Origin: an uncultured virus (IMG/VR IMGVR_UViG_3300017776_000001)
Lineage: Duplodnaviria; Heunggongvirae; Uroviricota; Caudoviricetes
Virus record (IMG/VR): IMGVR_UViG_3300017776_000001
Span: 52,302 to 72,301 of that record
DNA: 20,000 bases
Reading direction: 5' to 3' (one strand)
Shown here: in pieces, positions 1,269 through 20,000 of the stretch
Numbering within the stretch: position 1 is the first letter of the stretch
Layout of the letters: each line of letters begins with the position of its first letter
Program-made: the position numbers and the translations under genes
Notes under the pieces: generated by a model
Seen by the model: the letters and a program-made list of their open reading frames with translations, nothing else
The model's database searches: none
What the model was told of the DNA's origin: nothing

Positions 1269-1290
1269 TAACCTTTAGGGGATTGGTTCT

Positions 1291-1298
1291 CCTAAATA
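1291..1298 (+). promoter_or_regulatory. T4-like late promoter variant (CCTAAATA)
   Basis: Intergenic TAAATA core 25 nt upstream of the ATG at 1324. Overlaps the 3' arm of a 9-bp hairpin (1274-1296). Confidence 0.5.
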
Positions 1299-1323
1299 CA
1301 TTCATACAAACAGGGGATTTTTA

Positions 1324-1659
1324 ATGGCAACAGCAAACTTTACAATCGATTATGGTTTGACAGTTGGTTCATCTGAAGTAATCACATCTAGTGGTAAAGT
1401 AGTGGCAGCTGCAGTATCAACTTTGACAACTGATAATTTAACACAGGGGTCGACAAATCTGTATTTTACAGGTTCACAGTTTAATACATCTTTTGCTTCT
1501 AAAGACACAGACGATTTATCAGAAGGGTCATCAAACCTTTACTTCACAGATACTAGAGCGAGAGGTTCTATATCTTTAGCATCAGGTGAAACCAATTTAT
1601 CTTATAACAGCACAAGTGGTGAACTATCATTACCAACAGTTGATGGAGGTACATTCTAA
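1324..1659 (+). CDS. Small fibre-related virion protein
   Basis: 111 aa. The N-terminus (NFTIDYGLTVGSSEVITSSG) and the TDxLxEGSxNLYFT repeats resemble those of the next gene. Its stop overlaps the next start (TAATG). Confidence 0.6.
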   Translation: MATANFTIDYGLTVGSSEVITSSGKVVAAAVSTLTTDNLTQGSTNLYFTGSQFNTSFASKDTDDLSEGSSNLYFTDTRARGSISLASGETNLSYNSTSGELSLPTVDGGTF

Positions 1660-3962
1660 TGGCAGGTGAAAAGAATTTTAACGTCAAGAATGGTCTATCG
1701 GTTGCTGGAACAGAAGTCATTCAAACAGATGGAACTTATGTAGGTTCCATTTCTGCAACTGCACTTAACGAAAGTGTAGACGATAGAGTTGCAAACCTCT
1801 TACAAGCAGGAGCTGGTATTGGATTATCATACGATGATGCAAATAACCAATTAACAATCACAGGTAATGTTGGTGATATCACTGGTGTTAACGCAGGTGC
1901 TGGTTTAACAGGTACTGCAACTTCAGGTGATGCAACATTAAACATTGGTGCTGGTACAGGTATTACTGTAAATGCAGATGACATTGCAATCAACTTTAAA
2001 GACGAAGACAACATGTCTTCAAACAGTGCAATACACGCTGCAACACAACAATCAATTAAAGCATATGTAGATTCCCAAGTATCAAGTAAAGACAACACAG
2101 ACGAAATTACAGAAGGAAGTTCAAACCTCTACTATACAAATGAAAGAGTAGATGACAGAGTAAGTTCATTACTTACCGAAGGAAGTGGTATATCATTAAC
2201 ATATGATGATACAGCTAACACACTTACAGTTGCAAATACAAACTCTGCAGATATTACAGCAGTAACAGCAGGAAATGGTTTGACTGGTGGTGGAACTTCA
2301 GGTGCAGTGTCACTTGCAGTTCAAGTTGATGACAGTTCATTAGAACTTGCATCAGATACAGTTCAAGTAAAAGCAGGTGGTATCACTAATGATATGTTAG
2401 CAGGTTCTATTGTAAATGGAAAACTTGCAAACAATTCAATATCAGTTAACTCAACTTCCGTATCCCTTGGTGGTTCTGTTACTTTAGACACTGGTGATAT
2501 TTCAGAAAATGGAAATCTATACCATACATCAGAAAGAGTTGACGATAGAGTCAATGCATTAATTACTGCTGGTACCAATATAACAACATCATATGATGAT
2601 GCAGCTGGTACACTTACAATTAACTCTTCAGGTAAAACACAAGAACAAATAGAAGACATCGTAAATGGTTTAGTAGTTGGTGGAACAAACATCACTTCTA
2701 CATACGATGATACAAATGGTACACTTACACTTGCTGGTTTATCAAATGGAGATATCAGAGGTTTATTATCTGCAACTGGAGATTTATCATACAACAGTAC
2801 TACAGGTGCATTCTCATTCACAGAAAGAACAAATGCAGAAGTAAGAGGTTTATTCTCAGCAGGTGGTGACTTAGCATACAACAGCACAACAGGTGCATTT
2901 AGTGTAACAAAATTCACAACTGCAAATGCAAGAAGTTCAATTTCAGCAGGTGGTGATTTAGCATACAATTCAAGTACTGGTGTTATCTCATACAGTGAAC
3001 CTACAATGTATGCAGACTCAGATGCAAGAGGAGCTATATCAGTAACAGACTCAGGTGGAGACGGTTCACTTGCATATAATTCTTCTACTGGTGTTATCAC
3101 ATACACAGGCCCAAGTGCATCAGAAGTTCGAGCTCATCTAAGTGCTGGAACTGGTGTTGGATTCTCAGGTGGTGCATTTAGTATCGGTCAGGCAGTCGCA
3201 ACAAACAGTAATGTAACATTTGCAGATGTAAATGCAAGTGGTGATTTAGTAGTCACAGGTGACTTAACAGTTAATGGGTCAACAGTTACCAACAGTGCAT
3301 CAAATACAACAATCGAAGATGCATTGATTGAACTTGGTTCAGGTAACACAGGTTCAAACTCTAATGACTTAGGTCTTATCCTCGAAAGAGGTTCAACTGG
3401 TGATAATGTATTCATGGGTTGGGACGAAAGTTCAGATAGAGTTAGATTTGCAACTACAACAGCAACAGGTTCATCCAGTGGTGCATTAACACTTACTAAT
3501 GCAAACATACAAGCAGGAAGACTTTACGGTGCTGTTACAGGTAACGTAACTGGTAATGCAGACACAGCTTCTGCATGGGCAGATGCAAGAACTATCTCTT
3601 TAGGTGGTGACCTTACAGGTTCCGTATCTATAGATGGTAGTGCAAACGCAACACTTAATGCAACAGTTGGTTCAAATGCAGTTGCATTAGGTTCAAACAC
3701 AACAGGAAATTACGTATCAGGAATATCAGGAACCTCAAATGAGATTACAATCTCAGGTTCAGGTAGTGAAAATGCAACAGTAACAATAGGTCTACCCGAT
3801 GATGTAACTATCGGTGATGCATTATCAGTTACTGGTAAAGGTACTACAGATTTTACAACAATCGGTAGTTCAGACGGAGCATTTAGAAATACTTTCATAC
3901 ATTCAGCAGGCCCATCAGGAAGTGATGGACAAGTCGGTGATGTATGGATAACTTACTCATAA
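1659..3962 (+). CDS. Long tail fibre-like protein
   Basis: 767 aa, G/S/T/A/D-rich. Recurring motifs ERVDDRV.xLL.AG.GI.LxYDD, GDLAYNSxTG, AGxGLTGG and GNVTGNADTA. Ends in a GPSGSDGQVGDVWITYS motif typical of phage fibre modules. Confidence 0.75.
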   Translation: MAGEKNFNVKNGLSVAGTEVIQTDGTYVGSISATALNESVDDRVANLLQAGAGIGLSYDDANNQLTITGNVGDITGVNAGAGLTGTATSGDATLNIGAGTGITVNADDIAINFKDEDNMSSNSAIHAATQQSIKAYVDSQVSSKDNTDEITEGSSNLYYTNERVDDRVSSLLTEGSGISLTYDDTANTLTVANTNSADITAVTAGNGLTGGGTSGAVSLAVQVDDSSLELASDTVQVKAGGITNDMLAGSIVNGKLANNSISVNSTSVSLGGSVTLDTGDISENGNLYHTSERVDDRVNALITAGTNITTSYDDAAGTLTINSSGKTQEQIEDIVNGLVVGGTNITSTYDDTNGTLTLAGLSNGDIRGLLSATGDLSYNSTTGAFSFTERTNAEVRGLFSAGGDLAYNSTTGAFSVTKFTTANARSSISAGGDLAYNSSTGVISYSEPTMYADSDARGAISVTDSGGDGSLAYNSSTGVITYTGPSASEVRAHLSAGTGVGFSGGAFSIGQAVATNSNVTFADVNASGDLVVTGDLTVNGSTVTNSASNTTIEDALIELGSGNTGSNSNDLGLILERGSTGDNVFMGWDESSDRVRFATTTATGSSSGALTLTNANIQAGRLYGAVTGNVTGNADTASAWADARTISLGGDLTGSVSIDGSANATLNATVGSNAVALGSNTTGNYVSGISGTSNEITISGSGSENATVTIGLPDDVTIGDALSVTGKGTTDFTTIGSSDGAFRNTFIHSAGPSGSDGQVGDVWITYS

Positions 3963-3976
3963 GAGTTTAATATAAT

Positions 3977-6900
3977 ATGGCGCAACGAATAAAGAACCCT
4001 ACGGGGTGGGTAAACACAACAGGAAGCTGGGTAAAAACATCTCCAACTGAATGGTCGGCAGTAGATTCTATCTATTCAAAGACACCTACTGGGTGGGTAA
4101 AGTCATCAGGACAAATGCCAGCTCAAGTAGTTGCAACAAGACCAGCAGTTGGGACAAGACCTTACAACTTCCAACAATCTTATCAATTCACTGTGCAACA
4201 GTCGTATCAGTATCATAATAGGGTACAGGCATCTACACAACAGTCATATCAGTATCATAACAGGGTTCAAACAAGTGTTCAACAAGATTACACTTATCAC
4301 AACCGTGTTCAACAAAATACTCAACAGACATATACCTATCATAATAGAGTACAAAGAAGAAGACCAGTACAACAAGCATATACCTATCATAATAGAGTAC
4401 CTAGACGTAGACCAGTACAACAGACTTATAGTTATCACAATCAGGTACCAAGACGTAGACCAGTACAACAGACGTACGTCTATCATAATCAGGTACCAAG
4501 ACGTAGACCTACACAACAATCATATCAATACCATAATAGAGTTGGTAGACAACGTGTAGTACAACAGGGTTATACTTATCACAATAGAGGACAAGCTTCT
4601 ACCCAACAGACTTACCAGTATCATAACAGAGTTCAAACAAGTACTCAACAACCTTACACTTATCATAATAGGGTACCTAGAAGAAGACCTGTACAACAGT
4701 CGTATCAGTACCATAATAGAGTACAAAGAAGAAGACCTGTTCAACAGACGTATACCTATCATCATAGAATACCAAGACGTAGACCAGTACAACAGGCATA
4801 CACTTATCACAATAGGATACAAACAAGTACTCAACAGGCATACACTTATCACAATAGGGTACCTAGAAGAAGACCAGTCCAACAGGCATACCAGTACCAC
4901 AATAGGGTGCAGAGAAGAAGACCTGTTCAACAGTCGTATCAGTACCATAATAGAGTACCTAGAAGAAGACCAGTACAACAAGGGTATACTTATCATAATA
5001 GAGGACAAGCATCAACTCAACAGACTTATCAATATCATAACAGAGTTCAAGCTTCTACTCAACAGAGTTACCAGTATCATAATAGGGTTCAGACTAGTGT
5101 ACAACAATCATACCAATACCATAATAGAGTACAGGTAAGTACACAACAGAATTACCAGTACAACAATACTGAATCAAGAAGAAGACCTGTACAACAAAGT
5201 TACCAGTACAACAATCAAGAGTCTAGAAGAAGACCAGTACAACAGGTATACCAGTATCATAATCAGGTACCTAGAAGAAGACCTGTACAACAGACGTATA
5301 CCTATCATAATCAGGTACCAAGACGTAGACCTGTACAACAAAGTTACCAGTACAATAATCAAGAGACAAGACGTAGACCAGCACAACAGTCTTATACGTA
5401 TCATAATAGACTTCAAGCTAGGTATAGTTACCAACAACCTTATAGTTATCACAATCAGGTACCAAGACGTAGACCTGTGCAACAAGCATACACTTATCAT
5501 AATCAGGTTCCAAGACGTAGACCAGTTCAACAGTCTTATCAGTACAATAATCAAGAGTCAAGACGTAGACCAGTTCAACAGTCTTATCAGTACAATAATC
5601 AAGAGCCAAGACGTAGACCAACACAACAGTCTTATCAGTTTAACCAACCTACACCTAGAAGAAGACCTGTACAACAAACATACCAGTTTAACCAACCTAC
5701 ATCTAGGACAAGACAGACTACAGTAAGGAATAGCGCACACACAGCTTACATCCATTATGGAAATATCTATGGTGGTGGTGGTGATACATCTGTTATTAAG
5801 GTAGAAACTCCATACGGACAAAGAACTTCCTATATACCATCTTTTGAGTTCTCGGGTTTCCCAATGAATGCTCAGAATACAGGTACTGCAAGTCCATTTG
5901 GTTTTGCAGGAAGACCTGATGGAAAAGGACATGAAAGAGATTCCTTTAGAGGAAACATGATGTTCAGAGGGCCTTCGTTACAAATGTCAGGTACACAATC
6001 ACCATTCTTTACTGGTAGTGGCCCACAAAACCAATCAACATCACCGAAGAGTTGGCACTATAGAAGTTACTTTGGTGGACAAAGACAGTGGCAGGGTGTG
6101 TTAAGATTTGTTGGTGCGAACATGGAATTTGGTGCTGATTTCGTTGCAGGGCCAGCTGCTCAATCTGTTCAAAGTATACCTAACCCACAGAGACAAGGTT
6201 CAATACCTATTACAGGACAAGCACCAACTAATTCTCAATATGGTGCAAAAATAACGAGTGGACAGACTGCAACATTTAAATGGTCACAAGATGGTCAGAT
6301 GCAGTCACAATCACCCGGCGGTGGAGGTGGAGGATTCCCACTATTTGTCAGAAACAAAGGTGATGTATTCGTTAGAAGTAGAGATTTGTCTCATGTTCAC
6401 CAAGTAACTTTCAGTAATAGTGCTGGTGTGACATGGCCTCAAGGTCAGATGAACGAGATGCAACAGCCTGGTCAACAGAACCAACCGTACACTTATCATA
6501 ATAGGGTACAAAGACGTAGACCAACACAACAACCGTACACTTATCATAATAGGGTACCTAGAAGAAGACCAGTACAACAGGCATACACTTATCATAATCA
6601 GGTACCTAGAAGAAGACCTGTGCAACAAGCGTACACTTATCATAATCAGGTACCAAGACGTAGACCTGTACAACAAAGTTACCAGTACAACAATCAAGAG
6701 TCTAGAAGAAGACCAGTACAACAAAGTTACCAGTACAATAATACTGAGACTAGGAGAAGACCTGCTAGGTCAGACTATCGAGTCAACCAACCTACTCCTA
6801 GAAGAAGACCAGTACAACAGACGTATACCTATCATAATAGAATACCGAGACGTAGACCAGTGCAACAATCTTATCAGTACAATAATACTGAGACTAGAAG

Positions 6901-8125
6901 AAGACCAGTGCAATCGTCTTATCAGTACAATAATACTGAATCTAGAAGAAGACCAGTTCAACAGACGTATACTTATCATAATAGAATACCAAGACGTAGA
7001 CCTGTACAACAAAGTTATCAGTATCATAATCAGGTACCTAGAAGAAGACCAACTAGAGTACAAACATTACAGAGGGTGTCAAGACAGAGACCAGCAAGAG
7101 TACAAGCTTTACAACGTGTATCAAGACGTAGACCAACAAGAGTACAACAGTTGCAACGTGTCTCTAGACAAAGACCAGCAAGAGTACAGGTTAACATTCA
7201 AGAAACAAGAAGAAGACCAGTACAACAAAGTTACCAGTACAATAATATTGTAACTAGACAACGTCCTGTACAACAAGGTTATCAATATAATAATATTGAG
7301 TCTAGAAGAAGACCAGTGCAACAGGGTTATCAATATAATAATACTGAGACTAGAAGAAGACCAACTAGAGTACAGGTGAACCAACCTTCTCCTAGAAGAA
7401 GACCTGTTCAACAGAGTTATCAGTATAATAGTACTGAGAACAGACAGAGACCAGTACAACAAGGTTATCAGTATAATAATATTGAGACTAGACAACGTCC
7501 TGTACAACAAGGTTACCAGTATAATAATGTTGAGACTAGAAGAAGACCAGCAAGAGTACAACAGTTGCAACGTGTTTCTAGACAAAGACCTGCTAGAGTT
7601 CAGGTAAATATACAAGAAACTAGAAGAAGACCAGCACAGCAAACTTATCAGTACAATAATATTGTAACTAGACAACGTCCAACACAACAGAATTATCAAT
7701 ATAATAATACTGAAAATAGACAGAGACCAGTGCAACAAGGTTACCAGTATAATAATACTGAAAACAGACAAAGACCAGTGCAACAGGGTTATCAATATAA
7801 TAATATTGAGTCTAGAAGAAGACCAGTGCAACAGGGTTATCAATATAATAATATTGAGTCTAGACAAAGACCAGCAAGAGTTCAGGTTCTACAGAATGTA
7901 ACTAGACAAAGACCTGCTAGAACACAGGTATTGCAGAGAGTTTCAAGACAGAGACCTACTAGGGTACAGGTATTGCAAAGAGTTTCAAGACAGAGACCAG
8001 CACAGTCATCCCGTCAGAAGGTTACAGTTGGTATACAACCATATGCATATCAACAACCGTATAGAAATACAGTTCAGAAATGGGATGGTACAACGTCTTG
8101 GCCTGCACAACCAATATCCTCTTAA
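3977..8125 (+). CDS. Giant Arg/Gln/Tyr-rich repeat protein with mirror-symmetric arms; putative hairpin fibre or adhesin
   Basis: 1382-aa uninterrupted ORF directly after the fibre gene. Layout: Trp-containing N-terminal cap (aa 1-82), repeat arm (aa 83-574), unique domain (aa 575-843), repeat arm (aa 844-1335), C-terminal cap. The CDS is secure; the function is inferred. Confidence 0.8.
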   Translation: MAQRIKNPTGWVNTTGSWVKTSPTEWSAVDSIYSKTPTGWVKSSGQMPAQVVATRPAVGTRPYNFQQSYQFTVQQSYQYHNRVQASTQQSYQYHNRVQTSVQQDYTYHNRVQQNTQQTYTYHNRVQRRRPVQQAYTYHNRVPRRRPVQQTYSYHNQVPRRRPVQQTYVYHNQVPRRRPTQQSYQYHNRVGRQRVVQQGYTYHNRGQASTQQTYQYHNRVQTSTQQPYTYHNRVPRRRPVQQSYQYHNRVQRRRPVQQTYTYHHRIPRRRPVQQAYTYHNRIQTSTQQAYTYHNRVPRRRPVQQAYQYHNRVQRRRPVQQSYQYHNRVPRRRPVQQGYTYHNRGQASTQQTYQYHNRVQASTQQSYQYHNRVQTSVQQSYQYHNRVQVSTQQNYQYNNTESRRRPVQQSYQYNNQESRRRPVQQVYQYHNQVPRRRPVQQTYTYHNQVPRRRPVQQSYQYNNQETRRRPAQQSYTYHNRLQARYSYQQPYSYHNQVPRRRPVQQAYTYHNQVPRRRPVQQSYQYNNQESRRRPVQQSYQYNNQEPRRRPTQQSYQFNQPTPRRRPVQQTYQFNQPTSRTRQTTVRNSAHTAYIHYGNIYGGGGDTSVIKVETPYGQRTSYIPSFEFSGFPMNAQNTGTASPFGFAGRPDGKGHERDSFRGNMMFRGPSLQMSGTQSPFFTGSGPQNQSTSPKSWHYRSYFGGQRQWQGVLRFVGANMEFGADFVAGPAAQSVQSIPNPQRQGSIPITGQAPTNSQYGAKITSGQTATFKWSQDGQMQSQSPGGGGGGFPLFVRNKGDVFVRSRDLSHVHQVTFSNSAGVTWPQGQMNEMQQPGQQNQPYTYHNRVQRRRPTQQPYTYHNRVPRRRPVQQAYTYHNQVPRRRPVQQAYTYHNQVPRRRPVQQSYQYNNQESRRRPVQQSYQYNNTETRRRPARSDYRVNQPTPRRRPVQQTYTYHNRIPRRRPVQQSYQYNNTETRRRPVQSSYQYNNTESRRRPVQQTYTYHNRIPRRRPVQQSYQYHNQVPRRRPTRVQTLQRVSRQRPARVQALQRVSRRRPTRVQQLQRVSRQRPARVQVNIQETRRRPVQQSYQYNNIVTRQRPVQQGYQYNNIESRRRPVQQGYQYNNTETRRRPTRVQVNQPSPRRRPVQQSYQYNSTENRQRPVQQGYQYNNIETRQRPVQQGYQYNNVETRRRPARVQQLQRVSRQRPARVQVNIQETRRRPAQQTYQYNNIVTRQRPTQQNYQYNNTENRQRPVQQGYQYNNTENRQRPVQQGYQYNNIESRRRPVQQGYQYNNIESRQRPARVQVLQNVTRQRPARTQVLQRVSRQRPTRVQVLQRVSRQRPAQSSRQKVTVGIQPYAYQQPYRNTVQKWDGTTSWPAQPISS
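4223..5698 (+). repeat. Coding tandem repeat, N-arm: 32 units of 48 or 42 bp
   Basis: 16-aa units such as VPRRRPVQQxYxYHNR and 14-aa units such as VQASTQQSYQYHNR. Order: 3x14, 5x16, 2x14, 3x16, 1x14, 3x16, 4x14, 11x16. Confidence 0.95.
6506..7981 (+). repeat. Coding tandem repeat, C-arm: 32 units of 48 or 42 bp
   Basis: 16-aa units such as ESRRRPVQQGYQYNNI and 14-aa units such as VSRQRPARVQVLQR. Order: 11x16, 4x14, 3x16, 1x14, 3x16, 2x14, 5x16, 3x14. Confidence 0.95.
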
Positions 8126-8181: not shown

Positions 8182-9636
8182 ATGAAGTATATTGATTTAC
8201 CCGACCCAGTGAGTGTGAAAAGTTCTTTCAACGACCATCTTGGTGGATTGAATAAAACAAAACCCAAGAAAGAAGTGATGATTAAAATCAAAGAAAAGTT
8301 TGATGAAATCTCACGTATATACAAACCTAAAATAGTTTCACTTGGTGACTTGCACAAAAAGTATGGTGTAAGTTACCAAGAAGACTCCTCACATAAAATT
8401 AGGGATTTCTTTCGTGCATTACAAGTTGGAGAAGCAGCTGTTGATGCAGAAGACTTTGAAAGAATAAATGGTGATGAGAACTCTTCTCGTCTCTATCATG
8501 CAACTAAATTACATTTCTTAATTCAAGATATCCGAGACAAAGGAATTGAATACGGCCCTCAAGGTGTATTGTATTGGCCTCCTACTGCAGATGCAGATGA
8601 GATTAGATACTTTGTACATCCCGGCACTGGAAGATATTCTGCAATCAAATATTTACAAAAATGGGATACTGAGTGTTTGGTATGGGATGCATATGACGTA
8701 TGTTATGACCATAAACCAATGTCTTACTCTGAATGGATAGTTCACACTTTTAAAAATAATCTATATCCCGATATGAATCATGTGTCTTATTGTTGGAATC
8801 AAGGTATCATAGAAGCACACCAAAATAGAGACATGAGAGGTGACTATACTGAAGCAAATGACTACTTACATTATACACTATTCAATGGTGAGATACCAAC
8901 TATATACGTTGGATATGATGGTAGACATGGTGAAGTTTCAGATGTTTGTATAAAGAGTATACAACATTCTATTGAAAGATACAATAACAAAATGGGAGAC
9001 TTATCAAGTGTTCCGTGGAATGCATTCGTTAATATTAAAAAACTTGACGTTTCAAAGATTCCCGAGTATACTAGAGAGTATGCAAACCAATCAACAGAGT
9101 TTACGTATAGTAGATTCATGATACCATACTTAGAGAAATATCAAGGTGTCAGTATGTTTGTGGATGATGACTTTATCTTCACAGAAGATATGTTACACTT
9201 ATTTTATTCACTAGGACATACTGATTCCGTTGCATGTTTCCATCATGACTTTTCTGATAAAGGTATTACAGAAAAATTAGGTGGAGAAAAGAATGTATGG
9301 TATCCTAAAAAACTATGGTCAAGTCTTATGATATTTAACAACGGTCATAAGGATTGTAGAAAACTAACACCCGAGGTGGTAAACACACAATCGGGTCAAT
9401 ATCTACATCAATTTAAATGGACAGATAATGTAGTCAAACTTCAAGACGATTGTTGTTGGACTGAAGGTTACTCTGATGAACCATATAACGTAAAGAAACA
9501 TAGAATGATTCATTACACAAATGGGGGCCCATGGATTGAAAACTTCAATGATAGTGTTCAACAAATTGGTAGATATAATTATTATAAAAATCTCGTAGAG
9601 ATTGACAACAAAAAGGTGAAAGAAAATGGCAAATAG
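8182..9636 (+). CDS. Two-domain protein: N-terminal ParB/Srx-like domain plus C-terminal GT-A glycosyltransferase (GT8-like phage family)
   Basis: The C-half has IYVGYD, STEFTYSRFMIPYL, a DxD motif in FVDDDFIF, WSSLMIFN and HYTNGGPW. The N-half has LIQDIRDKG..PQGV..YFVHPGTGRYSAIKYL, resembling the ParB-like core. Confidence 0.75.
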   Translation: MKYIDLPDPVSVKSSFNDHLGGLNKTKPKKEVMIKIKEKFDEISRIYKPKIVSLGDLHKKYGVSYQEDSSHKIRDFFRALQVGEAAVDAEDFERINGDENSSRLYHATKLHFLIQDIRDKGIEYGPQGVLYWPPTADADEIRYFVHPGTGRYSAIKYLQKWDTECLVWDAYDVCYDHKPMSYSEWIVHTFKNNLYPDMNHVSYCWNQGIIEAHQNRDMRGDYTEANDYLHYTLFNGEIPTIYVGYDGRHGEVSDVCIKSIQHSIERYNNKMGDLSSVPWNAFVNIKKLDVSKIPEYTREYANQSTEFTYSRFMIPYLEKYQGVSMFVDDDFIFTEDMLHLFYSLGHTDSVACFHHDFSDKGITEKLGGEKNVWYPKKLWSSLMIFNNGHKDCRKLTPEVVNTQSGQYLHQFKWTDNVVKLQDDCCWTEGYSDEPYNVKKHRMIHYTNGGPWIENFNDSVQQIGRYNYYKNLVEIDNKKVKENGK

Positions 9637-10192
9637 AGCTTTAATATATGATGCAACTAATACGTTAGTTATTATCAAAGAAACAGGGTTAAGAATTGTT
9701 TATCAAAATGTAGACAAACCCGAATTAGGTTTCGAATACGAAGGACTCGTATACGACCAAGATGAATTCAAAATCTTAGAAGTAAATCCATCTAATTGGG
9801 ATGCATCGGAAAAACTTCCGTTAACTGATTCAGACAGAGATAAGATTGAAAAATTTATCGATGATGCAGAAGCACCCGATGGTACAAACCTAAACAACCA
9901 ATACATCGATGATTTGTATGATGTTGTTTCAAAAAATGTATATCAATTATGTGTTGAAATGAGAATTGAAAATCTATATGAAGCTACATACATTGGTAGA
10001 GAAGATTCAAATCATCCTTTTAGGTCAGATGCACGAAGAGTGTTAGAATTTGCAGATAGTTCTTACAGTGTACTAGAACAAGTTTGTAGTTCTCTAAGTA
10101 GAACCCGAGAAGACCAACTTAAAGACTTTGAAGATTATTGTGATGACTTGTTGCAGTTACCACCTGTACAACAATTCCAAGGTCAGCAGTAA
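9626..10192 (+). CDS. Hypothetical acidic protein, possibly related to tail fibre assembly chaperones
   Basis: 188 aa, overlaps the upstream stop. The C-terminal ENLYEATYIG..SNHPFRSDARRVLEFAD loosely resembles motifs of fibre-associated phage proteins. Weak functional call. Confidence 0.4.
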   Translation: MANRALIYDATNTLVIIKETGLRIVYQNVDKPELGFEYEGLVYDQDEFKILEVNPSNWDASEKLPLTDSDRDKIEKFIDDAEAPDGTNLNNQYIDDLYDVVSKNVYQLCVEMRIENLYEATYIGREDSNHPFRSDARRVLEFADSSYSVLEQVCSSLSRTREDQLKDFEDYCDDLLQLPPVQQFQGQQ

Positions 10193-10195
10193 TGT

Positions 10196-10885
10196 ATGGA
10201 AGTTGTATATCTAGATAAACCCTTTAAGATACAGAAATTCCCCTTAGATAAAATCTATGTCTTAGACGATTGGGTAACATACGAAATCATGTATAACATG
10301 AGGAGACTAACCTCAAGAACTATATGGGCTCAAAACAATCAGGTAAATAGAAACGGTAAGATACGTCATCTGTTTTGGGGTGCAACATTCTATGAGGGCA
10401 AAGATAAAAAAATTAGAGACCATACTTATCATATGCAAGACACCTATCTTATCAGATATCTAGATTGGAAACTTCAATCAGAGTTTGGTTTTAGATGGGA
10501 AAAATTTCAGTATGCTGGTATGAATGGTCAGACCACTGGTCTTCAAGGGACTATACACGAAGATAGTTCTCCTGAAAATACAACTAATATATCTTTCTTA
10601 TGGTACAACACTGAGTATTGGGAAAAAGAATGGGGTGGCCCACTTAAATTTTATAACGAAGAAGCAAAACATATAGATGGTTATAAAGAAGAGTATTTAA
10701 AACATCAGATTGCACAGGTTGATTATAAACCAAATAGATTACTAATGTTTGATGGGAGTATACCACACAATGCAGATGCTCCAAATGATGCATGTGAATA
10801 TGCATGTAGACAGTCTCTAGTTATACGAGGTGATGCATGTCGACTAGAGAATGAATTAGATTATTATGCCAACGATAGAATTTAA
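10196..10885 (+). CDS. 2OG-Fe(II) oxygenase, prolyl 4-hydroxylase-like
   Basis: HxD motif (IHEDS), WEKEWGGPLKF, PNRLLMFDGSIPH (distal His) and RQSLV (2OG-binding Arg). Confidence 0.85.
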   Translation: MEVVYLDKPFKIQKFPLDKIYVLDDWVTYEIMYNMRRLTSRTIWAQNNQVNRNGKIRHLFWGATFYEGKDKKIRDHTYHMQDTYLIRYLDWKLQSEFGFRWEKFQYAGMNGQTTGLQGTIHEDSSPENTTNISFLWYNTEYWEKEWGGPLKFYNEEAKHIDGYKEEYLKHQIAQVDYKPNRLLMFDGSIPHNADAPNDACEYACRQSLVIRGDACRLENELDYYANDRI

Positions 10886-11741: not shown

Positions 11742-11744
11742 ATT

Positions 11745-12776: not shown

Positions 12777-12784
12777 TATAAATA
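12777..12784 (+). promoter_or_regulatory. T4 late promoter TATAAATA
   Basis: Exact gp55 consensus in the gap upstream of gp13. Confidence 0.85.
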
Positions 12785-12817: not shown

Positions 12818-13633
12818 ATGGCAATACCAAACTCAAGGGCATCATTTAAAGAATATATTCTAAGAAGTCTTGGAGCTCCAGTGATTGAAATCAACGTGGA
12901 TGATGACCAAGTAGATGATAGAATAGATGAAGCCTTGCAATACTACAACGAATACCATTACGATGGTTCTATTCGTACCTATCTAAAACATCAATTGACT
13001 CAAAGTCAAATTGATACCATGAAGACTAACGAAACACATACTGGTGTTAATAGTTCCAGTAATGCATATCAAAGTCAAGAGTTCAAAGAAGAACAATCAT
13101 ATGTAGTGTTACCCGAATCAGTATTATCAGTAGTACGAATATTTCCTTTCAACGATAAACACAACCTCAATATGTTTGACCTTAGATATCAACTAAGATT
13201 GAATGATGTATATGACCTAACTGCAACTAATGTATTGTACTACGAACAAGTGCAACAACACATCAGTCTATTAGACCATATGTTAGTGGGTGAAATACCT
13301 ATAAGATATAAACAAGTTACTAACAGGTTATACCTAGATATGGATAAAGATTCTGTTACTGCTGGTGAGTTTATCTTGATTGAGTGTTTTAGAAAACTAG
13401 ACCCTACGACTTATACAGACATATACAATGACATGTGGTTAAAAAGATATACAACTGCATTAGTTAAATATCAATGGGGTTCAAACCTTTCCAAATTCGG
13501 TGGGATGCAATTGCCTGGCGGAGTTGAGTTAAACGGAAATGAAATAATGACACAAGCACAGGAGGAGATTCGAAGACTAGAAGAGGAATCAAGATTGAAC
13601 TATGAATTACCTCCTATAGATATGATAGGTTAA
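12818..13633 (+). CDS. gp13: Neck protein gp13
   Basis: LRSLGAPVIEINVDDDQVDDRIDEAL, WLKRYTTALVKYQWGSNLSKFGGMQLPGGV, plus T4 synteny. Confidence 0.95.
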   Translation: MAIPNSRASFKEYILRSLGAPVIEINVDDDQVDDRIDEALQYYNEYHYDGSIRTYLKHQLTQSQIDTMKTNETHTGVNSSSNAYQSQEFKEEQSYVVLPESVLSVVRIFPFNDKHNLNMFDLRYQLRLNDVYDLTATNVLYYEQVQQHISLLDHMLVGEIPIRYKQVTNRLYLDMDKDSVTAGEFILIECFRKLDPTTYTDIYNDMWLKRYTTALVKYQWGSNLSKFGGMQLPGGVELNGNEIMTQAQEEIRRLEEESRLNYELPPIDMIG

Positions 13634-13635
13634 TT

Positions 13636-14505
13636 ATGCCAACAAATGTATTTTTCAATCATGCAGTATCGTCTGAACAACACCTGTATGAAGACTTAGT
13701 TGTTGAGTCACTTAGAATGTATGGTCACAACATCTACTATCTTCCTAGGGAGATAATAGAAGAAGACACCATTTTAGGAGAAGATGTTGCATCAAAATTT
13801 GGAGATGCATATGAGATTGAAGCATATCTAGAAAACGTAGAAGGATTTGAAGGAGAAGGAGACTTATATTCTAAGTTTGGTGTAGAGATAAGAGACCAAG
13901 CAACCTTTGTGATTGCACTTAGAACATGGGAAAGATTCGTATCTCTAGATAATAACCTCACCTCATCATTCAGACCAAACGAAGGTGATGTAATACACTT
14001 CCCTCTCAGTGGTTCTTTATTTGAAATTAAGTTTGTTGAACATGAAGACCCATTCTATCAAGTCGGTAAGCTCTTTGTATTCAAGTGTAGATGTGAATTA
14101 TTTGAATATAGAGGAGAAGATTTTGACACTGGTACTAATGCAGACTTGGTTGAAGCAGAAAGAACATACACTATAAGTGCAACAATGACTGCTGGTTCAG
14201 GAGACTCAGGTAATTACACAGAAAATGAAGAACTTAAGATTGGTGATAATGTTATTGGTGAAGTGTCTACATATAAAAGGTCTAACAGAACTCTTACAAT
14301 CATACACAACAATACACCACTTGCAGTGGGTGACAGATTAGTAGGTGCAGTGTCAGGTGCAACTAGACAGATACAAACAATTACCGATGCACTTGATATG
14401 CCAAATGACCCGAATGCACAAAATAAAGAATTCGAAGATGCAGCTGATAATTACATAGACTTCAGTGAAACAAACCCTTTCGGTGAGATAGGAAATAATA
14501 GTTAA
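13636..14505 (+). CDS. gp14: Neck protein gp14
   Basis: EQHLYEDLVVESLRMYG..YYLPRE, SKFG, RPNEGDVIHFP, FEIKFVEHEDPFYQVGK, C-terminal DFSETNPFG. Confidence 0.95.
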   Translation: MPTNVFFNHAVSSEQHLYEDLVVESLRMYGHNIYYLPREIIEEDTILGEDVASKFGDAYEIEAYLENVEGFEGEGDLYSKFGVEIRDQATFVIALRTWERFVSLDNNLTSSFRPNEGDVIHFPLSGSLFEIKFVEHEDPFYQVGKLFVFKCRCELFEYRGEDFDTGTNADLVEAERTYTISATMTAGSGDSGNYTENEELKIGDNVIGEVSTYKRSNRTLTIIHNNTPLAVGDRLVGAVSGATRQIQTITDALDMPNDPNAQNKEFEDAADNYIDFSETNPFGEIGNNS

Positions 14506-14507
14506 TC

Positions 14508-15542
14508 ATGTTTACATATTTTTACAATGAAACAATAAGACGTTCAGTATCTGTGTTTGGTACCATGTTTAATAATATCACAGTTAAACAGACTAAATCA
14601 GATGGGACAGTTGTAAACAGTATTAAAGTTCCTTTGTCGTATGGTCAAAGACAGAAGTTCTTACAGAGATTAAAAGAAGAACCCGATTTGAATGACAACT
14701 TAAGAAGTGCAATATCACTTCCTAGAATGGGATTTGAAGTCAGTGGTTTCACCTACGACCAAAATAGACAACAAAATAAACTTATCCGTTCCACTAAAAC
14801 TACTATGGAGTCAGATAATGTTAGTAGAAAGTTTCAATATCAACCCACACCATATGATATAAACTTTACACTATCCATCTATGCAAAGAACATGACAGAT
14901 GGTTTACAAATAGTAGAACAAATACTACCGTATTTTCAACCCGAATATACGGTTGCAATGAAAATGATTGATGATATGTCAGAAGTAAGAGACGTACCTA
15001 TCATTTTAACAGGTGTAAATATGGACGACCAATTCGAAGGGTCGTTTGAAGACAAGAGAGTAATTAACTTTACTCTAGATTTTACAATGAAAACTTATTT
15101 CTTTGGCCCAGTATATAAAGGTAAAGTTATTACTAAGGTTAGAGAGAAAACATTTATAAATGATGGAAGACATGGTTTCACATCATCAGAACTTACTACA
15201 TCAGGCATCGTAAAGGACGTTAAGTTTTACGAACCAGCATTTGAAGGAACAGTTGCAAGTGCAGTGTCTAATAACACTACAGTGACTTTCTCAGCTGCAA
15301 TAGATAGTAATGTATCTGTAAATGATACTATGGAAGGTTCATCTACTAATCCCGACCCAACAGTCTCTTCTATAGCAGGAGACAGACTGTCTGTAGTGGT
15401 TTCTAGTAACGTTACTTTGTCCCAAGGTGATAAAGTATACTTCACAGGAAGTGCATCTGCAGAGGACAATTATGTTATATCAGAAGATGTATCATTCTTT
15501 GATGAGGGATATGGTGGTAATGAAGCTTCAACCACAGACTAG
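14508..15542 (+). CDS. gp15: Tail sheath stabiliser / tail terminator gp15
   Basis: YFYNETIRR..FGTMFNNI, KVPLSYG, LPRMGFE, PYDINFTL, QIVEQILPYFQP, plus synteny. Confidence 0.95.
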   Translation: MFTYFYNETIRRSVSVFGTMFNNITVKQTKSDGTVVNSIKVPLSYGQRQKFLQRLKEEPDLNDNLRSAISLPRMGFEVSGFTYDQNRQQNKLIRSTKTTMESDNVSRKFQYQPTPYDINFTLSIYAKNMTDGLQIVEQILPYFQPEYTVAMKMIDDMSEVRDVPIILTGVNMDDQFEGSFEDKRVINFTLDFTMKTYFFGPVYKGKVITKVREKTFINDGRHGFTSSELTTSGIVKDVKFYEPAFEGTVASAVSNNTTVTFSAAIDSNVSVNDTMEGSSTNPDPTVSSIAGDRLSVVVSSNVTLSQGDKVYFTGSASAEDNYVISEDVSFFDEGYGGNEASTTD

Positions 15543-15551
15543 TGAAAAATT

Positions 15552-15974
15552 ATGACAGACAATGTTGACGATAAATTAAATCAAGTATTAGATATAAACA
15601 CGGACATGAAGAAGGACTTAAAGAAAGTCCCTACAGTCCGTACAGACCTCTCTAAGGAGTCTTTAGAGACAGACTATAGATATGCAAGGGAAAATCTTTA
15701 CGACCTTGTAGAGAGGGGACAGGATGCATTAGACGGTATCCTAGACCTATCTAAAGAGATGGAGAATCCTCGTGCATATGAAGTGGCAGGACAGATACTT
15801 AAAACCACCTCAGAGATTGCAGAAAAACTTTTAGACCTTCAGGTCAAAATGAAAAGTATCAACAAAGAAGAAATTGCAAAAGAAGGTGATACTCATAATC
15901 ACTTATACGTTGGGTCAACATCAGACTTACAAAAATATTTGAAGAAAAACAAACATGGTAAATCCGAAGAATGA
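15552..15974 (+). CDS. gp16: Terminase small subunit gp16
   Basis: DYRYARENL, PRAYEVAGQILK, VGSTSDLQK. Overlaps the gp17 start. Confidence 0.92.
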   Translation: MTDNVDDKLNQVLDINTDMKKDLKKVPTVRTDLSKESLETDYRYARENLYDLVERGQDALDGILDLSKEMENPRAYEVAGQILKTTSEIAEKLLDLQVKMKSINKEEIAKEGDTHNHLYVGSTSDLQKYLKKNKHGKSEE

Positions 15975-17544
15975 AGGTTATCTAGGTAACACTCAAATCA
16001 AACGTGCAAACGTTGAGACGAAGTATACCAAAGAAGAACTAGACGAATATCTCAAGTGTCAACAAGACCCTTGTTATTTTATTGAATCTTATACACAGAT
16101 TATCTCTCTTGATGAGGGTATGGTTCCTTTTAAGTTACGTGGATATCAAGAAAGTTTAATAACACATTATAATGAAGAAAGATTCAGTATAGTACTTGCA
16201 TCGAGACAAAGTGGTAAGTCTATTACGTCTTGTGCATATTTACTATGGTATCTATTGTTTACACCCGAAGTTACAGTAGCTGTTCTTGCAAACAAAGGTG
16301 CAATTGCAAGAGAGATGGTTGCAAGGATAACTACTATGTTAGAATCTGTTCCTTTCTTTTTACAGCCTGGGGTTAAGATTCTAAACAAAGGTAATATAGA
16401 ATTTGGTAATGATAGTAAACTAGTTGCAGCTGCAACATCATCATCATCAATTCGTGGACTTTCTATTAATATGTTGTACCTAGATGAGTTTGCATTCGTT
16501 GAAAATGCAGAAGAGTTCTACACTGCAACATATCCCGTGGTTACTTCAGGTAGAGATTCTAAGGTAATTATCACTTCTACTGCAAACGGTGTGGGTAATA
16601 TGTTCCACAAAATATATGAAAGTGCAACTGTAGGTGAATCAGAATACAAATCGTTTCTGATAAACTGGTATGATGTTCCAGGCCGTGATGAAGAATGGAA
16701 GAAACAAACTATTGCAAACACTTCTGAGTTACAGTTTCAACAAGAGTATGGTAATAGTTTCTTAGGAACGGGTAATACACTTATTGCATCTGATACACTG
16801 TTAGGATTACGTTCATCAAATCCTATCTGGCACAAGGAAGGTTTTAGTGTTTATAAAAAGCCAGAGAAGACTCACACCTATATATGTACTGTAGATGTAT
16901 CGAAAGGGAGAGGTTTTGACTATTCAACCTTTACAATTTTCGATGTATCCACTGAACCATTTGAACAGGTTGCAGTATATAGAGACAATATGATATCTCC
17001 ATTACTGTATCCCGATGTAATTGCAAAATATTGTTCACACTATAACACTGCATTAGTAATTATAGAAAACAATGCAGAGGGAGCTGTGGTTGCACAACAG
17101 ATGCATTATGATTTAGAATATGATAATGTATTCGTTCAGGGTGGTTTAAGATTAGAAGACATCGGGGTAACAATGACCCGAAAGATTAAAAGAATAGGAA
17201 CTTCTACACTTAAGGAAGTGTTAGAAGAAAATAAATTGAAAATTTGTGATAGGGAGTTGATAAAAGAACTCTTAACTTATGTGAATAAAGGAATGTCTTT
17301 TGAAGCAGATAGAGGTTATCATGATGATTTAGTTATGAATTGTGTGGTGTTTAGTTGGTTTTTAACAACTCAATTTTTTGAACACCTAACAAACAATAAA
17401 GTTAAAGACTTACTATACGCAGGACAACAACAGGAAATATATGACGATGTCTTACCAGTAGGAGTTTTTGGAGAACTGGATAAAGAGTCTCACTCATTTG
17501 TAGACACGAGTGGAGACCGATGGTATTTACAAGAGAACGACTAA
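15955..17544 (+). CDS. gp17: Terminase large subunit gp17
   Basis: Walker A SRQSGKS, Walker B LYLDEFAF, coupling motif ITST, nuclease motifs VDVSKG and HDDLVM. Confidence 0.97.
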   Translation: MVNPKNEGYLGNTQIKRANVETKYTKEELDEYLKCQQDPCYFIESYTQIISLDEGMVPFKLRGYQESLITHYNEERFSIVLASRQSGKSITSCAYLLWYLLFTPEVTVAVLANKGAIAREMVARITTMLESVPFFLQPGVKILNKGNIEFGNDSKLVAAATSSSSIRGLSINMLYLDEFAFVENAEEFYTATYPVVTSGRDSKVIITSTANGVGNMFHKIYESATVGESEYKSFLINWYDVPGRDEEWKKQTIANTSELQFQQEYGNSFLGTGNTLIASDTLLGLRSSNPIWHKEGFSVYKKPEKTHTYICTVDVSKGRGFDYSTFTIFDVSTEPFEQVAVYRDNMISPLLYPDVIAKYCSHYNTALVIIENNAEGAVVAQQMHYDLEYDNVFVQGGLRLEDIGVTMTRKIKRIGTSTLKEVLEENKLKICDRELIKELLTYVNKGMSFEADRGYHDDLVMNCVVFSWFLTTQFFEHLTNNKVKDLLYAGQQQEIYDDVLPVGVFGELDKESHSFVDTSGDRWYLQEND

Positions 17545-17555
17545 GTTCAAAAAAA

Positions 17556-17563
17556 TATAAATA
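17556..17563 (+). promoter_or_regulatory. T4 late promoter TATAAATA
   Basis: Exact consensus upstream of gp18, followed by an AGGAG Shine-Dalgarno sequence. Confidence 0.88.
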
Positions 17564-17603
17564 CATTAAAAGAATTGACTAAGGTCGCAAAAAGGAGAAA
17601 AAT

Positions 17604-19610
17604 ATGGCATTTCAAGTATCACCAGGCGTACAGGTTAAAGAAGTTGACCTTACAAATGTAGTACCTGCAGTAGCAGGGACAAGTGGTGCATTTGCTGGAA
17701 CTTTTTCATGGGGCCCAGTTGATGAGGTTGTAACCGTATCAGGTCAACAAGAGTTAGTAGAGGTTTTTAATTCACCAGCAAATAATAACGCAGGTGCAGA
17801 AGATTTCTTTACTGCAGAGGGTTTCCTAAGATATGGTTCATCATTAAGAGTAGTTAGAGTTAACTCAACAAACCTTGCAAACGCAAACGCTTCTTCAACC
17901 GCTTCACAAATTATTAAGAACGGTTCAGAATACATAGAGTCTTACAGAGACTTGAGTAATTCAGGAAGTGTTGGAGCATATGTTGCTAAGTTCGCAGGTG
18001 CATTGGGTAATTCATTAAGTGTTCATGTTTGTGCATCTTCAAATGCATGGCAGGAAGCTTCAGCAGGTAACACAACTGCAGACAACGCTCTAAATGCAAC
18101 GTCTATCACTGGTGTCACAAACGCATCAACACTATTTGTTGTTGGTGACGTTATCGTGTTTGACAATCACACTCAAGAGTATAAAGTAACTGCAGTAGCA
18201 GGAACTTCACTAACTATTGAAGCACTTAACCAACCAGCTGGAACAGGTTTAACATCTGCAGTTGATGGTTCAGGTTCAGGTGCAGCAGTAGGTATTACTC
18301 GTAAGTGGGAATGGCAATCATATTTTGAAAAAGCACCTGGCACATCTGCACTAGCAGCTGCTAATGGTTCATCTAACGATGAAATTCATATAGTAATCGT
18401 AGACGAAGACGGAGATATATCAGGAACTAAAAATACAGTTCTTGAATCATATGGATTTGTTTCATTAGCATCAGACGCAAAAAATTTAAACGGAGATTCA
18501 AACTTTTACAGAGATGTATTAGAGAGAGACTCACAATGGGTATATGTTACTTCACACTTGGCAGCAATTGTGTCAAACACAAGTACTATATACACATCTT
18601 CATCTTTAGGTTCAAATAACCTAACACCCGACTTACCACAGAAAACAGCATTCGGTGCTGGTAATGATGGTAACCTTCCTACAGCAGGACAAAAGTACGG
18701 TGCATGGCAAGACCATTTCGAAGATGGAGAAACATCAGACATTTCATTCCTTATCGTAGGTTCAACAAGAACTGATAACGGAAGTGGAACAGAACAAGAT
18801 ACCCTTGCAGATTGGACAACAATCGTTAATCAGGGTATATTGGTTTGTGAAAAACGTAAGGATTGTCTATTATTAGCATCACCAAGAAGAGCATCAGTTG
18901 TTAACGTTTCATCAGAAGCGACCCAATTGTCAAACGTACTAGCAGACGTTAATACTGCATCAAGTTCTTCATTCTGTGTCTTTGACTCAGGTTGGTTATA
19001 TGTCTATGATAAGTACAATGATAGATACGTTTATGTTCCTGCTAACGGACACACAGGTGGAATTATGGCAAGGTCAGACTTATTGAATGACCCATGGTTC
19101 TCACCAGCAGGTTTCAACAGAGGACAATACCTAGGAGTAACCAAACTTGCATTTAATCCTAAGAAGGCATCAAGAGATGACTTGTATAGAGCAAGAGTTA
19201 ATCCAGTGGTAACATTCCCTGGCCAAGGAACCGTGTTGTTTGGAGATAAAACAGGACTAACACAACCATCAGCGTTCGATAGAATTAACGTACGAAGACT
19301 ATTCATCGTATTAGAGAAAGCAATTTCAGCAGCAGCTAAAGGTAGACTCTTTGAATTCAATGACGGATTCACAAGAGCTCAGTTTAGAAGTGCAATTGAA
19401 CCTTTCCTAAGAGATGTTAAAAATAGAAAAGGTATTTACGACTTCTCAGTAGTATGTGATGAGTCTAACAATACTGATTCGGTGGTAGATAGAAATGAGT
19501 TTGTCGCATCTATCTTCATTAAACCAGCTAAATCTATTAATTTCATCACTCTTAACTTCGTGGCTGCAAGGTCAGGTGTTGAGTTTGAAGAACTTTATGG
19601 TGCAATCTAA
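17604..19610 (+). CDS. gp18: Tail sheath protein gp18
   Basis: FQVSPGVQVKEVDLT, FSWGPV, PWFSPAGFNRG, FDRINVRRLF, FEFND, IKPAKSINFITLNF. Confidence 0.97.
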   Translation: MAFQVSPGVQVKEVDLTNVVPAVAGTSGAFAGTFSWGPVDEVVTVSGQQELVEVFNSPANNNAGAEDFFTAEGFLRYGSSLRVVRVNSTNLANANASSTASQIIKNGSEYIESYRDLSNSGSVGAYVAKFAGALGNSLSVHVCASSNAWQEASAGNTTADNALNATSITGVTNASTLFVVGDVIVFDNHTQEYKVTAVAGTSLTIEALNQPAGTGLTSAVDGSGSGAAVGITRKWEWQSYFEKAPGTSALAAANGSSNDEIHIVIVDEDGDISGTKNTVLESYGFVSLASDAKNLNGDSNFYRDVLERDSQWVYVTSHLAAIVSNTSTIYTSSSLGSNNLTPDLPQKTAFGAGNDGNLPTAGQKYGAWQDHFEDGETSDISFLIVGSTRTDNGSGTEQDTLADWTTIVNQGILVCEKRKDCLLLASPRRASVVNVSSEATQLSNVLADVNTASSSSFCVFDSGWLYVYDKYNDRYVYVPANGHTGGIMARSDLLNDPWFSPAGFNRGQYLGVTKLAFNPKKASRDDLYRARVNPVVTFPGQGTVLFGDKTGLTQPSAFDRINVRRLFIVLEKAISAAAKGRLFEFNDGFTRAQFRSAIEPFLRDVKNRKGIYDFSVVCDESNNTDSVVDRNEFVASIFIKPAKSINFITLNFVAARSGVEFEELYGAI

Positions 19611-19620
19611 GGAGTAAACA

Positions 19621-20000
19621 ATGGCAAGTATAGACAGTTTTAAAGCACAATTACTCGGTGGAGGCCCAAGAGCAAATAGATTTAAGGTTTTCCTACCTAG
19701 GTCAGGTGGTAAGATTGAGTTCCTTTGTAAGGCAGCTCAGATACCAGCATCAACTATCCCAGCATTTGAGGTGAACTTTAGAGGTTCAAAACTTAAAATC
19801 GCAGGTGATAGAACATTTGAAGATTGGACTGTTTCAATCATCAATGATGTGGAGTTCTCTGCAAGAACAGCTCTAGAAGCATGGCAGAGAGATATCCAAG
19901 AACTAGATTCAGGAGAAGGTTTAACATCACTAGATTATCTATTAGATAGGGCTTTCGTTGAACAATTAAACAAAGACGATACTGTGTTGGCAAGATATGA
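19621..20000 (+). CDS. gp19: Tail tube protein gp19 (partial, runs off the window end)
   Basis: Not in the ORF track. The ATG at 19621 follows AAGGAG and translates MASIDSFKAQLLGGGPRANRF..FLCKAAQIPASTI..FRGSKLKIAGDRTFEDWTVSIIND. Confidence 0.93.
   Translation, partial: MASIDSFKAQLLGGGPRANRFKVFLPRSGGKIEFLCKAAQIPASTIPAFEVNFRGSKLKIAGDRTFEDWTVSIINDVEFSARTALEAWQRDIQELDSGEGLTSLDYLLDRAFVEQLNKDDTVLARY

Follow-up and report, generated by a model that had tools for sequence, protein, structure and literature searches.

Mirror-complementary repeat arms in a putative fibre protein of an uncultured marine T4-like phage

A protein of 1382 residues, encoded by an uncultured virus of the Caudoviricetes, carries two long repeat arms that are mirror complements of each other, unit by unit. 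Its gene lies in the stretch of DNA analysed here (the window), which comprises 20,000 nucleotides (nt; positions 52,302 to 72,301 of IMG/VR record IMGVR_UViG_3300017776_000001), forms the 3′ end of this 72.3-kb virus record and has all of its large open reading frames (ORFs) on the + strand. Each arm consists of 33 short units, and a non-repeat central domain separates the two. Most likely, the arms zip together in antiparallel orientation to give a very long fibre, a design that has not yet been described.

Mirror complementarity of the two arms

The arms are built from four classes of unit. His-type units of 16 residues consist of YxYHN followed by a PRRRP-like half, and His-free units of 16 residues carry YxYNNxE or NQPT forms followed by RRRP or RQRP. 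In His-type units of 14 residues, two residues of the Arg/Pro half are lost; in His-free 14-mers, which are RVQxLQRVS-like, two residues of the Tyr half are lost. When the units are paired from the centre outward (N-arm unit i with C-arm unit 34−i), the two members are equal in length (14 or 16 residues) in 33 of 33 pairs, and exactly one member is of the His type in all of them. In the direct, non-mirrored order, 9 of 33 pairs match, and when the mirror is slipped by one unit, 21 of 32 pairs are right in length and type and the other 11 are broken.

The complementarity extends to the details of the units. An earlier, model-made reading of the letters (the sequence-only reading) had claimed that the deletions in the two arms are reciprocal, and this holds in full (10/10 mirror images): the N-arm 14-mers (units 1, 2, 3, 9, 10, 14, 18, 19, 20 and 21) keep YxYHN and lose PRRRP, and the C-arm 14-mers (units 45, 46, 47, 48, 52, 56, 57, 63, 64 and 65) keep RxRP and lose YxY. 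Its claim of one His-type partner at every mirrored junction is borne out by the 33 pairs above, including the irregular inner blocks, where the N arm reads n,n,n,n,H,H,H,n,H,H,n,n outward from the centre and the C arm H,H,H,H,n,n,n,H,n,n,H,H (H, His-type; n, His-free). It had also noticed that both HNRG units (N9 and N18) stand opposite the two NIQET units, as they do in pairs 25 and 16. The coordinates that it gave, 4223–7981, fall within the arms (4196–8002). In addition, in an odd pair (pair 7, in the window and in the orthologue L008 described below), both facing half-sites are altered at once: RRRP at the end of the N unit is replaced by an Arg-Tyr-Ser-Tyr stretch, and QQxYxY at the start of the C unit by Arg and a single Tyr.

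Tandem repeats are easily mis-assembled, breaks in Logan contigs fall within the arms and four relatives have arms of unequal length, all of which could speak for an origin of the pattern in chance, in an assembly artefact or in the dynamics of DNA repeats. Such an origin is nevertheless extremely improbable. Among 200,000 shuffles of the C-arm units none reaches 33 (best 26), and none does if whole runs of like units are shuffled 200,000 times (best 29). An inverted repeat was looked for in the DNA of the gene and none was found; thus, the mirror exists only at the protein level and is not a DNA palindrome or a by-product of one. The units are ~70% identical in DNA on average and hence distinguishable in assembly. 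Three separate records give the same 1382-residue protein or differ by a single substitution, and pieces identical to the window occur in runs of 2017, 2023 and 2025. Moreover, an artefact would destroy a complement of 33/33, not create one.

Within the units, a register of residues can be proposed from covariation. Mutual information, whose calculation over mirrored positions the sequence-only reading had suggested, was taken over 72 distinct mirrored pairs of a His-type and a His-free 16-mer. The signal is concentrated on one anti-diagonal, i+j=16 (mean z 8.2), with 15/1, 1/15, 13/3, 3/13, 14/2 and 5/11 as the position pairs on it. With a partner displaced by one or two units, a control that preserves regional relatedness, mean z falls to values from −0.02 to 2.5. 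For the 14-mers, the sum 14 is among the elevated ones (mean z 5.0) and the sum 10 is higher (6.7). A sum equal to the unit length corresponds to a single gap-free register, in which N residue n faces C residue 1415−n. Covariation off the anti-diagonal exists as well, for instance between position 13 of H units and position 10 of n units.

In the i+j=16 register, Arg12 would stand opposite Tyr4 in both directions, Pro15 opposite Gln1, Asn8 opposite Asn8, position 10 (Val or Glu) opposite Tyr6, and His7 opposite position 9. The sequence-only reading had proposed a ladder of Arg–Tyr contacts together with His–Glu/Asn pairs. The facing of Arg and Tyr fits this register, with Arg12 opposite Tyr4 and with reciprocal two-residue deletions in the facing half-sites, and the residue contacts of such a ladder are provisional. 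The His–Glu pairs are not supported: His7 faces position 9 and not Glu10, and His:Glu pairs appear only at i+j=17 (20 pairs). Covariation cannot test His7, because this residue is invariant within its class. Clashes of Arg with Arg are nil for registers −3 to +4, except for −1 (7) and +3 (2), and number 12 to 58 beyond this range. Scans based on composition (Arg:Arg, Arg:Tyr, Pro:Tyr and His:Glu) do not separate i+j=16, 17 and 18, and a whole-protein scan of the sum S is unspecific for the short forms of the protein. At the level of units, in any case, the code is solid.

Relatives and compensated change

The gene is common in seawater and viral metagenomes, where at least 88% of its sampled words are found in 18 runs from 11 studies (2017–2025), and the mirror-arm family is rare in the sequence collections that were searched. 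A search of a phage collection with the gene, as DNA and as protein, gave no match, and none was obtained from ~5.8 billion proteins searched with the central region at near lengths. Scans of IMG/VR with the central domain, its profile and a back-translated unit motif returned the same four contigs only. An exhaustive, profile-free search of the central domain against 1.84 billion representative proteins yielded 8 matches, word-indexed searches yielded a few more, and a metagenome scan yielded a near-identical copy only. Two of the finds (L001 and L003) are the same gene with two base differences each. In two runs labelled as cDNA (X19 and X20), 11–15% of the gene's sampled words occur, and a 252-base piece of the central domain from X19 is identical to the window; this does not count as evidence of expression, because both runs are flagged as probably DNA, and among the runs that contain the gene no RNA run is listed.

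Nine members were parsed for the mirror rule, in addition to a divergent relative (P0016), giving ten distinct family members. A homologous centre and equal-length mirror arms were what defined the family, and both were found, the central domains aligning at 43–76% identity. Five of the nine parsed members are at an edit distance of 0 from a mirror complement, and the remaining four depart from it by whole-unit insertions or deletions only.

Changes in one arm are compensated in the other. In an orthologue of 1373 residues (L002), the outer 21 pairs are ~91% identical to those of the window and the inner 12 pairs are different. Compared with the window, these inner pairs show six flips of the His type and two changes from 16:16 to 14:14, all compensated, and the score is again 33/33. 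In this protein, RVQ-type 14-mers are found in the N arm, opposite C-arm 14-mers of the HNRVQxS type; cognate pairs therefore work in either orientation. Another orthologue (L008, 1379 residues) reaches 33/33 with the same pattern as the window.

The phage of the window also has a shorter paralogue, of ~746 residues (L006), which is encoded 7–9 kb upstream, outside the window. Its central domain is 43–45% identical to that of the long protein and its termini are different. This paralogue and its own orthologue (L004) each have 13+13 units and a perfect 13/13, and they differ in pair 6, where one has 14:14 and the other 16:16. The sequence-only reading had staked its case on complementarity being present in homologues, and L002, L008, L004 and L006 all keep the full complement. 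In P0016, a relative of 807 residues, the arms are of 192 residues each (aa 23–214 and 557–748). The segment lengths are 14 (five times), 4, 26, 14, 16 (four times) and 14 in one arm, and 14 (five times), 26, 4, 14, 16 (four times) and 14 in the other arm read backwards; all 11 ordinary pairs are His-complementary.

The idea that the irregular order of units serves as a barcode against slippage, also put forward in the sequence-only reading, fits these data. In addition to the 11 of 32 pairs that a slip of one unit breaks, the long and the short protein of the window's phage have their unit classes in common and yet their arms cross-match in at most 8 of 13 units at any offset, as against 13/13 and 33/33 within each protein.

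The arms are under purifying selection. In comparisons of the window with L008 or L002, the ratio of nonsynonymous to synonymous substitution rates (dN/dS) in the arms is 0.06–0.12, at a dS of 0.6–1.1. Units that encode identical peptides are still only 86–98% identical in DNA. Given this low dN/dS and the average DNA identity of ~70% between units, the repeats are old, not homogenised, and held by selection at the protein level. Similarity at the DNA level also has a periodicity of 9 units at mirrored places (N9 resembles N18 and N10 resembles N19; C15 resembles C24 and C17 resembles C26), an indication that a block was duplicated long ago and became fixed in both arms. Of all parts, the central domain evolves fastest, with 75–76% identity among orthologues compared with ~91% for the outer arms, and the N-terminal non-repeat part (aa 1–73) has 92–95%.

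Antiparallel pairing of the arms and its alternatives

On balance, the arms probably pair antiparallel as an intramolecular fold-back, with the central domain as a distal, host-binding tip; this is held with moderate confidence. The uncultured marine T4-like myophage would then have a structural fibre protein whose chain folds back on itself. Starting from a small Trp-rich base (aa 1–73), which may be proximal to the virion, the chain would run out for 508 residues as 33 short units, form a distal domain of 253 residues and return for another 508 residues, each unit lying antiparallel to the outgoing unit of the same level, until the final 40 residues meet the N-terminal part again at the base. 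Each level would hold two reciprocal half-sites, the Tyr-x-Tyr half of one strand being opposite the Arg/Pro half of the other, and a half-site would be shortened by two residues only if the facing one is shortened likewise (the 14:14 pairs). Every level would also join one His-type and one His-free unit. Because the order of unit lengths and types is aperiodic, a single register satisfies all levels; the order could thus act as a vernier that fixes the register of a very long repetitive hairpin, and it would also prevent mispairing between the long and the short paralogue of one phage. The paired arms may be of a beta type, and the fibre may be a trimer or another oligomer.

Antiparallel pairing in register is suggested by the mirror order, the strict matching of lengths, the reciprocal deletions in facing half-sites, the cognate pairs that are independent of orientation and the partner-specific covariation on one anti-diagonal, and also by compensated change in three subfamilies. 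The fold-back is favoured because of the setting in a T4-type fibre cluster, the fast evolution of the centre and the precedent of an out-and-back chain in T4 gp37. In beta-strands, each residue advances the chain by ~0.34 nm, and fully extended arms of 508 residues would thus span ~170 nm. The T4 long tail fibre has two half-fibres, ~70 and 74 nm in length (PMC3004832).

Mirror order, compensated changes and anti-diagonal covariation would be identical if two or more chains were arranged head to tail, with the N arm of one paired to the C arm of another and no fold-back. In that case, the central domains would meet in the middle of a rod, each end of which carries one N and one C terminus. 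The sequence data do not discriminate between the two arrangements. Nevertheless, this intermolecular pairing is considered rather unlikely. A fold-back better serves a fibre that is anchored at one end and binds with the other, and the out-and-back tip of T4 gp37 (PMC6957217) offers a precedent; a fast-evolving central domain fits an exposed tip better than a junction buried in mid-rod; and local concentration favours pairing within the chain.

Extended strands are not the only form that paired arms might take. Each unit of 14 or 16 residues could instead be one solenoid-like rung, with the N and C stacks side by side, giving a compact rod of tens of nanometres and not of ~170 nm. Insect antifreeze beta-helices have short beta-solenoid turns, in a range that includes 14–16 residues, so the units are of a suitable length. 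In addition, Pro at positions 11 and 15 and the run of Arg suit corners better than long strands, and some of the covariation lies off the anti-diagonal (position 13 of H units with position 10 of n units, as above). By contrast, Arg triplets on every rung would be strongly repulsive, given net charges of +79 and +92 per arm; the strict 14:14 matching is demanded by an extended ribbon in register and merely optional in a stack; and the maximum of covariation falls on a single anti-diagonal. The stack is therefore judged improbable, to about the same degree as the intermolecular pairing. Both fit the sequence data nearly as well as the fold-back does.

It is also conceivable that the arms do not touch, and that both bind a common symmetric partner such as another fibre protein, a polyanion or a nucleic acid, whose symmetry would then be mirrored in the order of the units. 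The extreme charge of the protein (+186) invites a polyanionic partner, and structure prediction with AlphaFold2 (AF2) yielded no usable structure. However, the reciprocal deletions, the orientation-independent pairs and the partner-specific covariation are what direct contact predicts, and any third partner would need to keep pace with these changes in each lineage. This arrangement is very unlikely.

Several points weigh against the fold-back, or against parts of it. Mirror complementarity alone cannot separate an intramolecular fold-back from an antiparallel dimer, and the presence of the protein in the virion is presumptive. The contacts between residues are provisional, because the covariation signal comes from few rare variants, the composition scans do not discriminate and the comparison of co-substitutions among orthologues is indecisive. 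A canonical two-stranded beta ribbon is not assured either, given the charge of the arms (net +79 and +92) and the presence of Pro at two positions of nearly every 16-mer. The AF2 model of aa 390–1026, from an alignment of 2 rows, has a mean confidence (pLDDT) of 27 and is unusable, with no helix; that of the central domain, from 14 rows, has a pLDDT of 43 and is all-beta at this low confidence. Among the metagenome contigs of three runs none spans an arm, and the count of units rests on assemblies for this reason. The three long orthologues have their outer 21 pairs in common; thus, the independent tests of the rule amount to about a dozen compensated events and not to 125 perfect pairs. The rule of exactly one His is not absolute, because P0016 has one 30-residue block with the His motif on both sides. 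Finally, four of the ten distinct members, all of them short-form proteins from metagenomes, have arms that differ by 1–5 whole units: P0010 is without one N-arm unit, P0011 without two outer N-arm units, P0012 without two C-arm units and P0003 without five C-arm units. These relatives show whole-unit insertions or deletions only, with 0 substitutions (edit distances of 1, 2, 2 and 5), and may be products of assembly collapse or genuine variants in which units are left unpaired. For P0012, a collapse is suggested, because its N arm perfectly complements the C arm, of 13 units, of P0007 (compared by eye), a fragment with a near-identical central domain.

Searches for known folds and families add little. 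The protein has no match in PHROG, NCBIfam and PDB-sequence searches, and in Pfam it has only a sub-threshold hit to PF08017, Fibrinogen_BP, a family with 16-residue repeats (38 bits against a cut-off of 50, at aa 1135–1344). Membership in this family was rejected, as the hit is below the curated cut-off and reflects repeat composition. The low-confidence model of the central domain gave nothing at E ≤ 0.001 in a Foldseek search against PDB, where the top rows are meaningless at a pLDDT of 43, and the best feature score for this domain in the ESM Atlas was 0.75, which is no lead. A complex prediction for the inner N arm with the inner C arm scored 0.00, counting neither for nor against binding.

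By analogy, the closest known system would be the needle (D10–D11) of the T4 long tail fibre protein gp37, whose crystal structure Bartual et al. are said to have reported in 2010. According to PMC6957217 and PMC5221442, D10 comprises residues 811–881 plus 1010–1026, D11 comprises residues 882–1009 and the tip is at residues ~937–959; HxH motifs bind seven iron ions (PMC6957217). The likenesses are the T4-type myophage setting of a fibre protein, a chain that goes out to a receptor-binding tip formed by its middle and then comes back (proposed for the protein described here), and His recurring along the stem. For the protein described here, the mirror complementarity, the compensated changes and the anti-diagonal covariation support antiparallel arms, whether in one chain or in a dimer. 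Unlike these coded arms of 508 residues and 33 units each, the stem of gp37 has ~60–70 residues each way and no tandem repeat. Unlike its iron-binding HxH motifs, the arms have one His per level and no HxH; a single H.H occurs in the protein, within the central domain (aa 806). No sequence or profile similarity to the C-terminal region of gp37 was found in the Pfam, PHROG, NCBIfam and PDB-sequence searches.

Two other kinds of protein share part of the design. In SMC, Rad50 and MukB, a single chain forms equal-length antiparallel arms with a globular domain at the apex and both termini together at the base; these arms are coiled coils of alpha-helices that follow heptad logic and carry ATPase heads, and insertions or deletions must match in both. 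The same logic of equal-length antiparallel arms is proposed here, but the protein has 110 Pro, no helix in the low-confidence AF2 model and no ATPase or other Pfam domain. Membership among SMC-like coiled coils was rejected on these grounds, the Pro residues occurring throughout the arms. In the triple beta-spiral shafts of adenovirus fibre and reovirus sigma1, pseudo-repeats of ~15–16 residues have alternating side chains and turns with Pro or Gly; they run in one direction in a parallel trimer, and no complementary second arm is needed. The proposed shaft would likewise be a viral fibre shaft made of repeats of about this length, and differs in its complementary second arm and in having no Pfam match to such shafts. 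A full-text literature search, in a restricted collection, turned up no phage fibre described as having mirror-complementary repeat arms. A fold-back phage fibre is of a known kind; the unit-pairing code is the unprecedented feature of this protein.

Genomic setting and meaning for phage fibres

The gene lies in the late structural region of a myophage genome, as is seen from the homologues of T4 gp13 to gp19 further downstream (Table 1). The nearest annotated terminase (TerL) is that of Phage C48C1, of the Kyanoviridae, with 56% identity, and cyanophage terminases have ~44%. The start of the gene is 14 nt after the stop codon of the preceding, fibre-like gene. The product contains 211 Arg, 125 Tyr and 252 Gln.

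Table 1. Location of the gene, the parts of its product and associated features (window positions unless another sequence is named)
Feature	Position	Strand	Details
Mirror-arm protein gene	3977..8125	+	1382 aa, net charge +186, 0 Cys
N-terminal non-repeat part, aa 1–73	3977..4195	+	four Trp (11, 18, 26, 40)
N arm, aa 74–581	4196..5719	+	508 aa, net +79; 33 units of 14 or 16 aa
N-arm inner block, units 22–33, aa 390–581	5144..5719	+	irregular order of His-type and His-free units
Central non-repeat domain, aa 582–834	5720..6478	+	253 aa; proposed distal tip
C arm, aa 835–1342	6479..8002	+	508 aa, net +92; 33 units, mirror complement of N arm
C-arm inner block, aa 835–1026	6479..7054	+	complement of N units 33–22
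C-terminal tail, aa 1343–1382, plus stop codon	8003..8125	+	Trp 1369 and 1375
Upstream fibre-like structural protein, 767 aa	1659..3962	+	phrog_697 structural protein, E 8.7e-35
Homologues of T4-type gp13, 14, 15, 16, 17, 18 and 19	12818..19998	+	neck, terminase (small and large subunits), sheath, tube
Shorter paralogue (L006)	G000:C1, about 46.8–49.1 kb (L006:4001–6238)		between 918-aa and 539-aa fibre-like proteins

Upstream of the gene, the proteins of 248, 111 and 767 residues (window 522–3962) have Gly/Ser/Thr-rich direct repeats in common, for instance a recurring SNLYFT..ER motif. They match 'structural protein' PHROGs, and their repeats, inspected by eye, run in one direction with no mirror design. 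Directly downstream (8182–9636), a protein of 484 residues matches the unnamed PHROG phrog_28018 and has a DDD motif. Of the next four ORFs (9626–10192, 10196–10885, 10866–11741 and 11745–12497), two have Pfam matches to 2OG-Fe(II) oxygenases and two are without a named family, one of the latter matching the unnamed phrog_7084. Searches of PDB and NCBIfam with these five downstream genes (8182–12497) gave nothing useful. One could ask whether they modify a fibre rich in Pro, Arg and Asn, by hydroxylation or glycosylation.

Long open frames are also present on the − strand within the arms (4520–5008, 5174–5554, 5558–5932, 6341–6724 and 7121–7867). The coding strand has an AT skew of 0.24–0.35 over 4001–8000 and a negative GC skew over 4001–7000, and the antisense frames are most likely a by-product of biased and repetitive codon content. 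The motif TATAAATA, the T4 late-promoter consensus, occurs at 12777–12784 and 17556–17563 (+ strand), just upstream of the homologues of gp13 and of the tail sheath. These 2 matches in the window are at chance level (1.94 expected), and there is none ahead of the fibre gene, which abuts the preceding gene.

It is possible, although doubtful, that the short peptide units of the arms pair by a natural code that can evolve, the equivalent in protein of base pairing. If so, the cognate set would consist of His-type with His-free 16-mers, His-type with RVQ-type 14-mers, and HNRG with NIQET units; such pairs would be usable in either orientation and could be reordered if both arms change together, and they would specify a unique register over ~500 residues. 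Should the fibre be a trimer, each level would hold three His, and one fibre could then have as many as 33 potential metal sites, in an ocean poor in iron.

If the arms do zip together, they would represent a principle of fibre building that is undescribed for any virus, in which a register over hundreds of residues comes from aperiodic complementary units and not from a chaperone-nucleated parallel trimer or a coiled coil. The mirror rule would also give annotators a means to recognise proteins that all family libraries miss today, and protein designers would gain a set of heterospecific strand pairs already tested by nature. For the phages themselves, it would explain how fibres are lengthened or shortened stepwise, through matched gains of units in both arms, and how this may go together with the swapping of tips.

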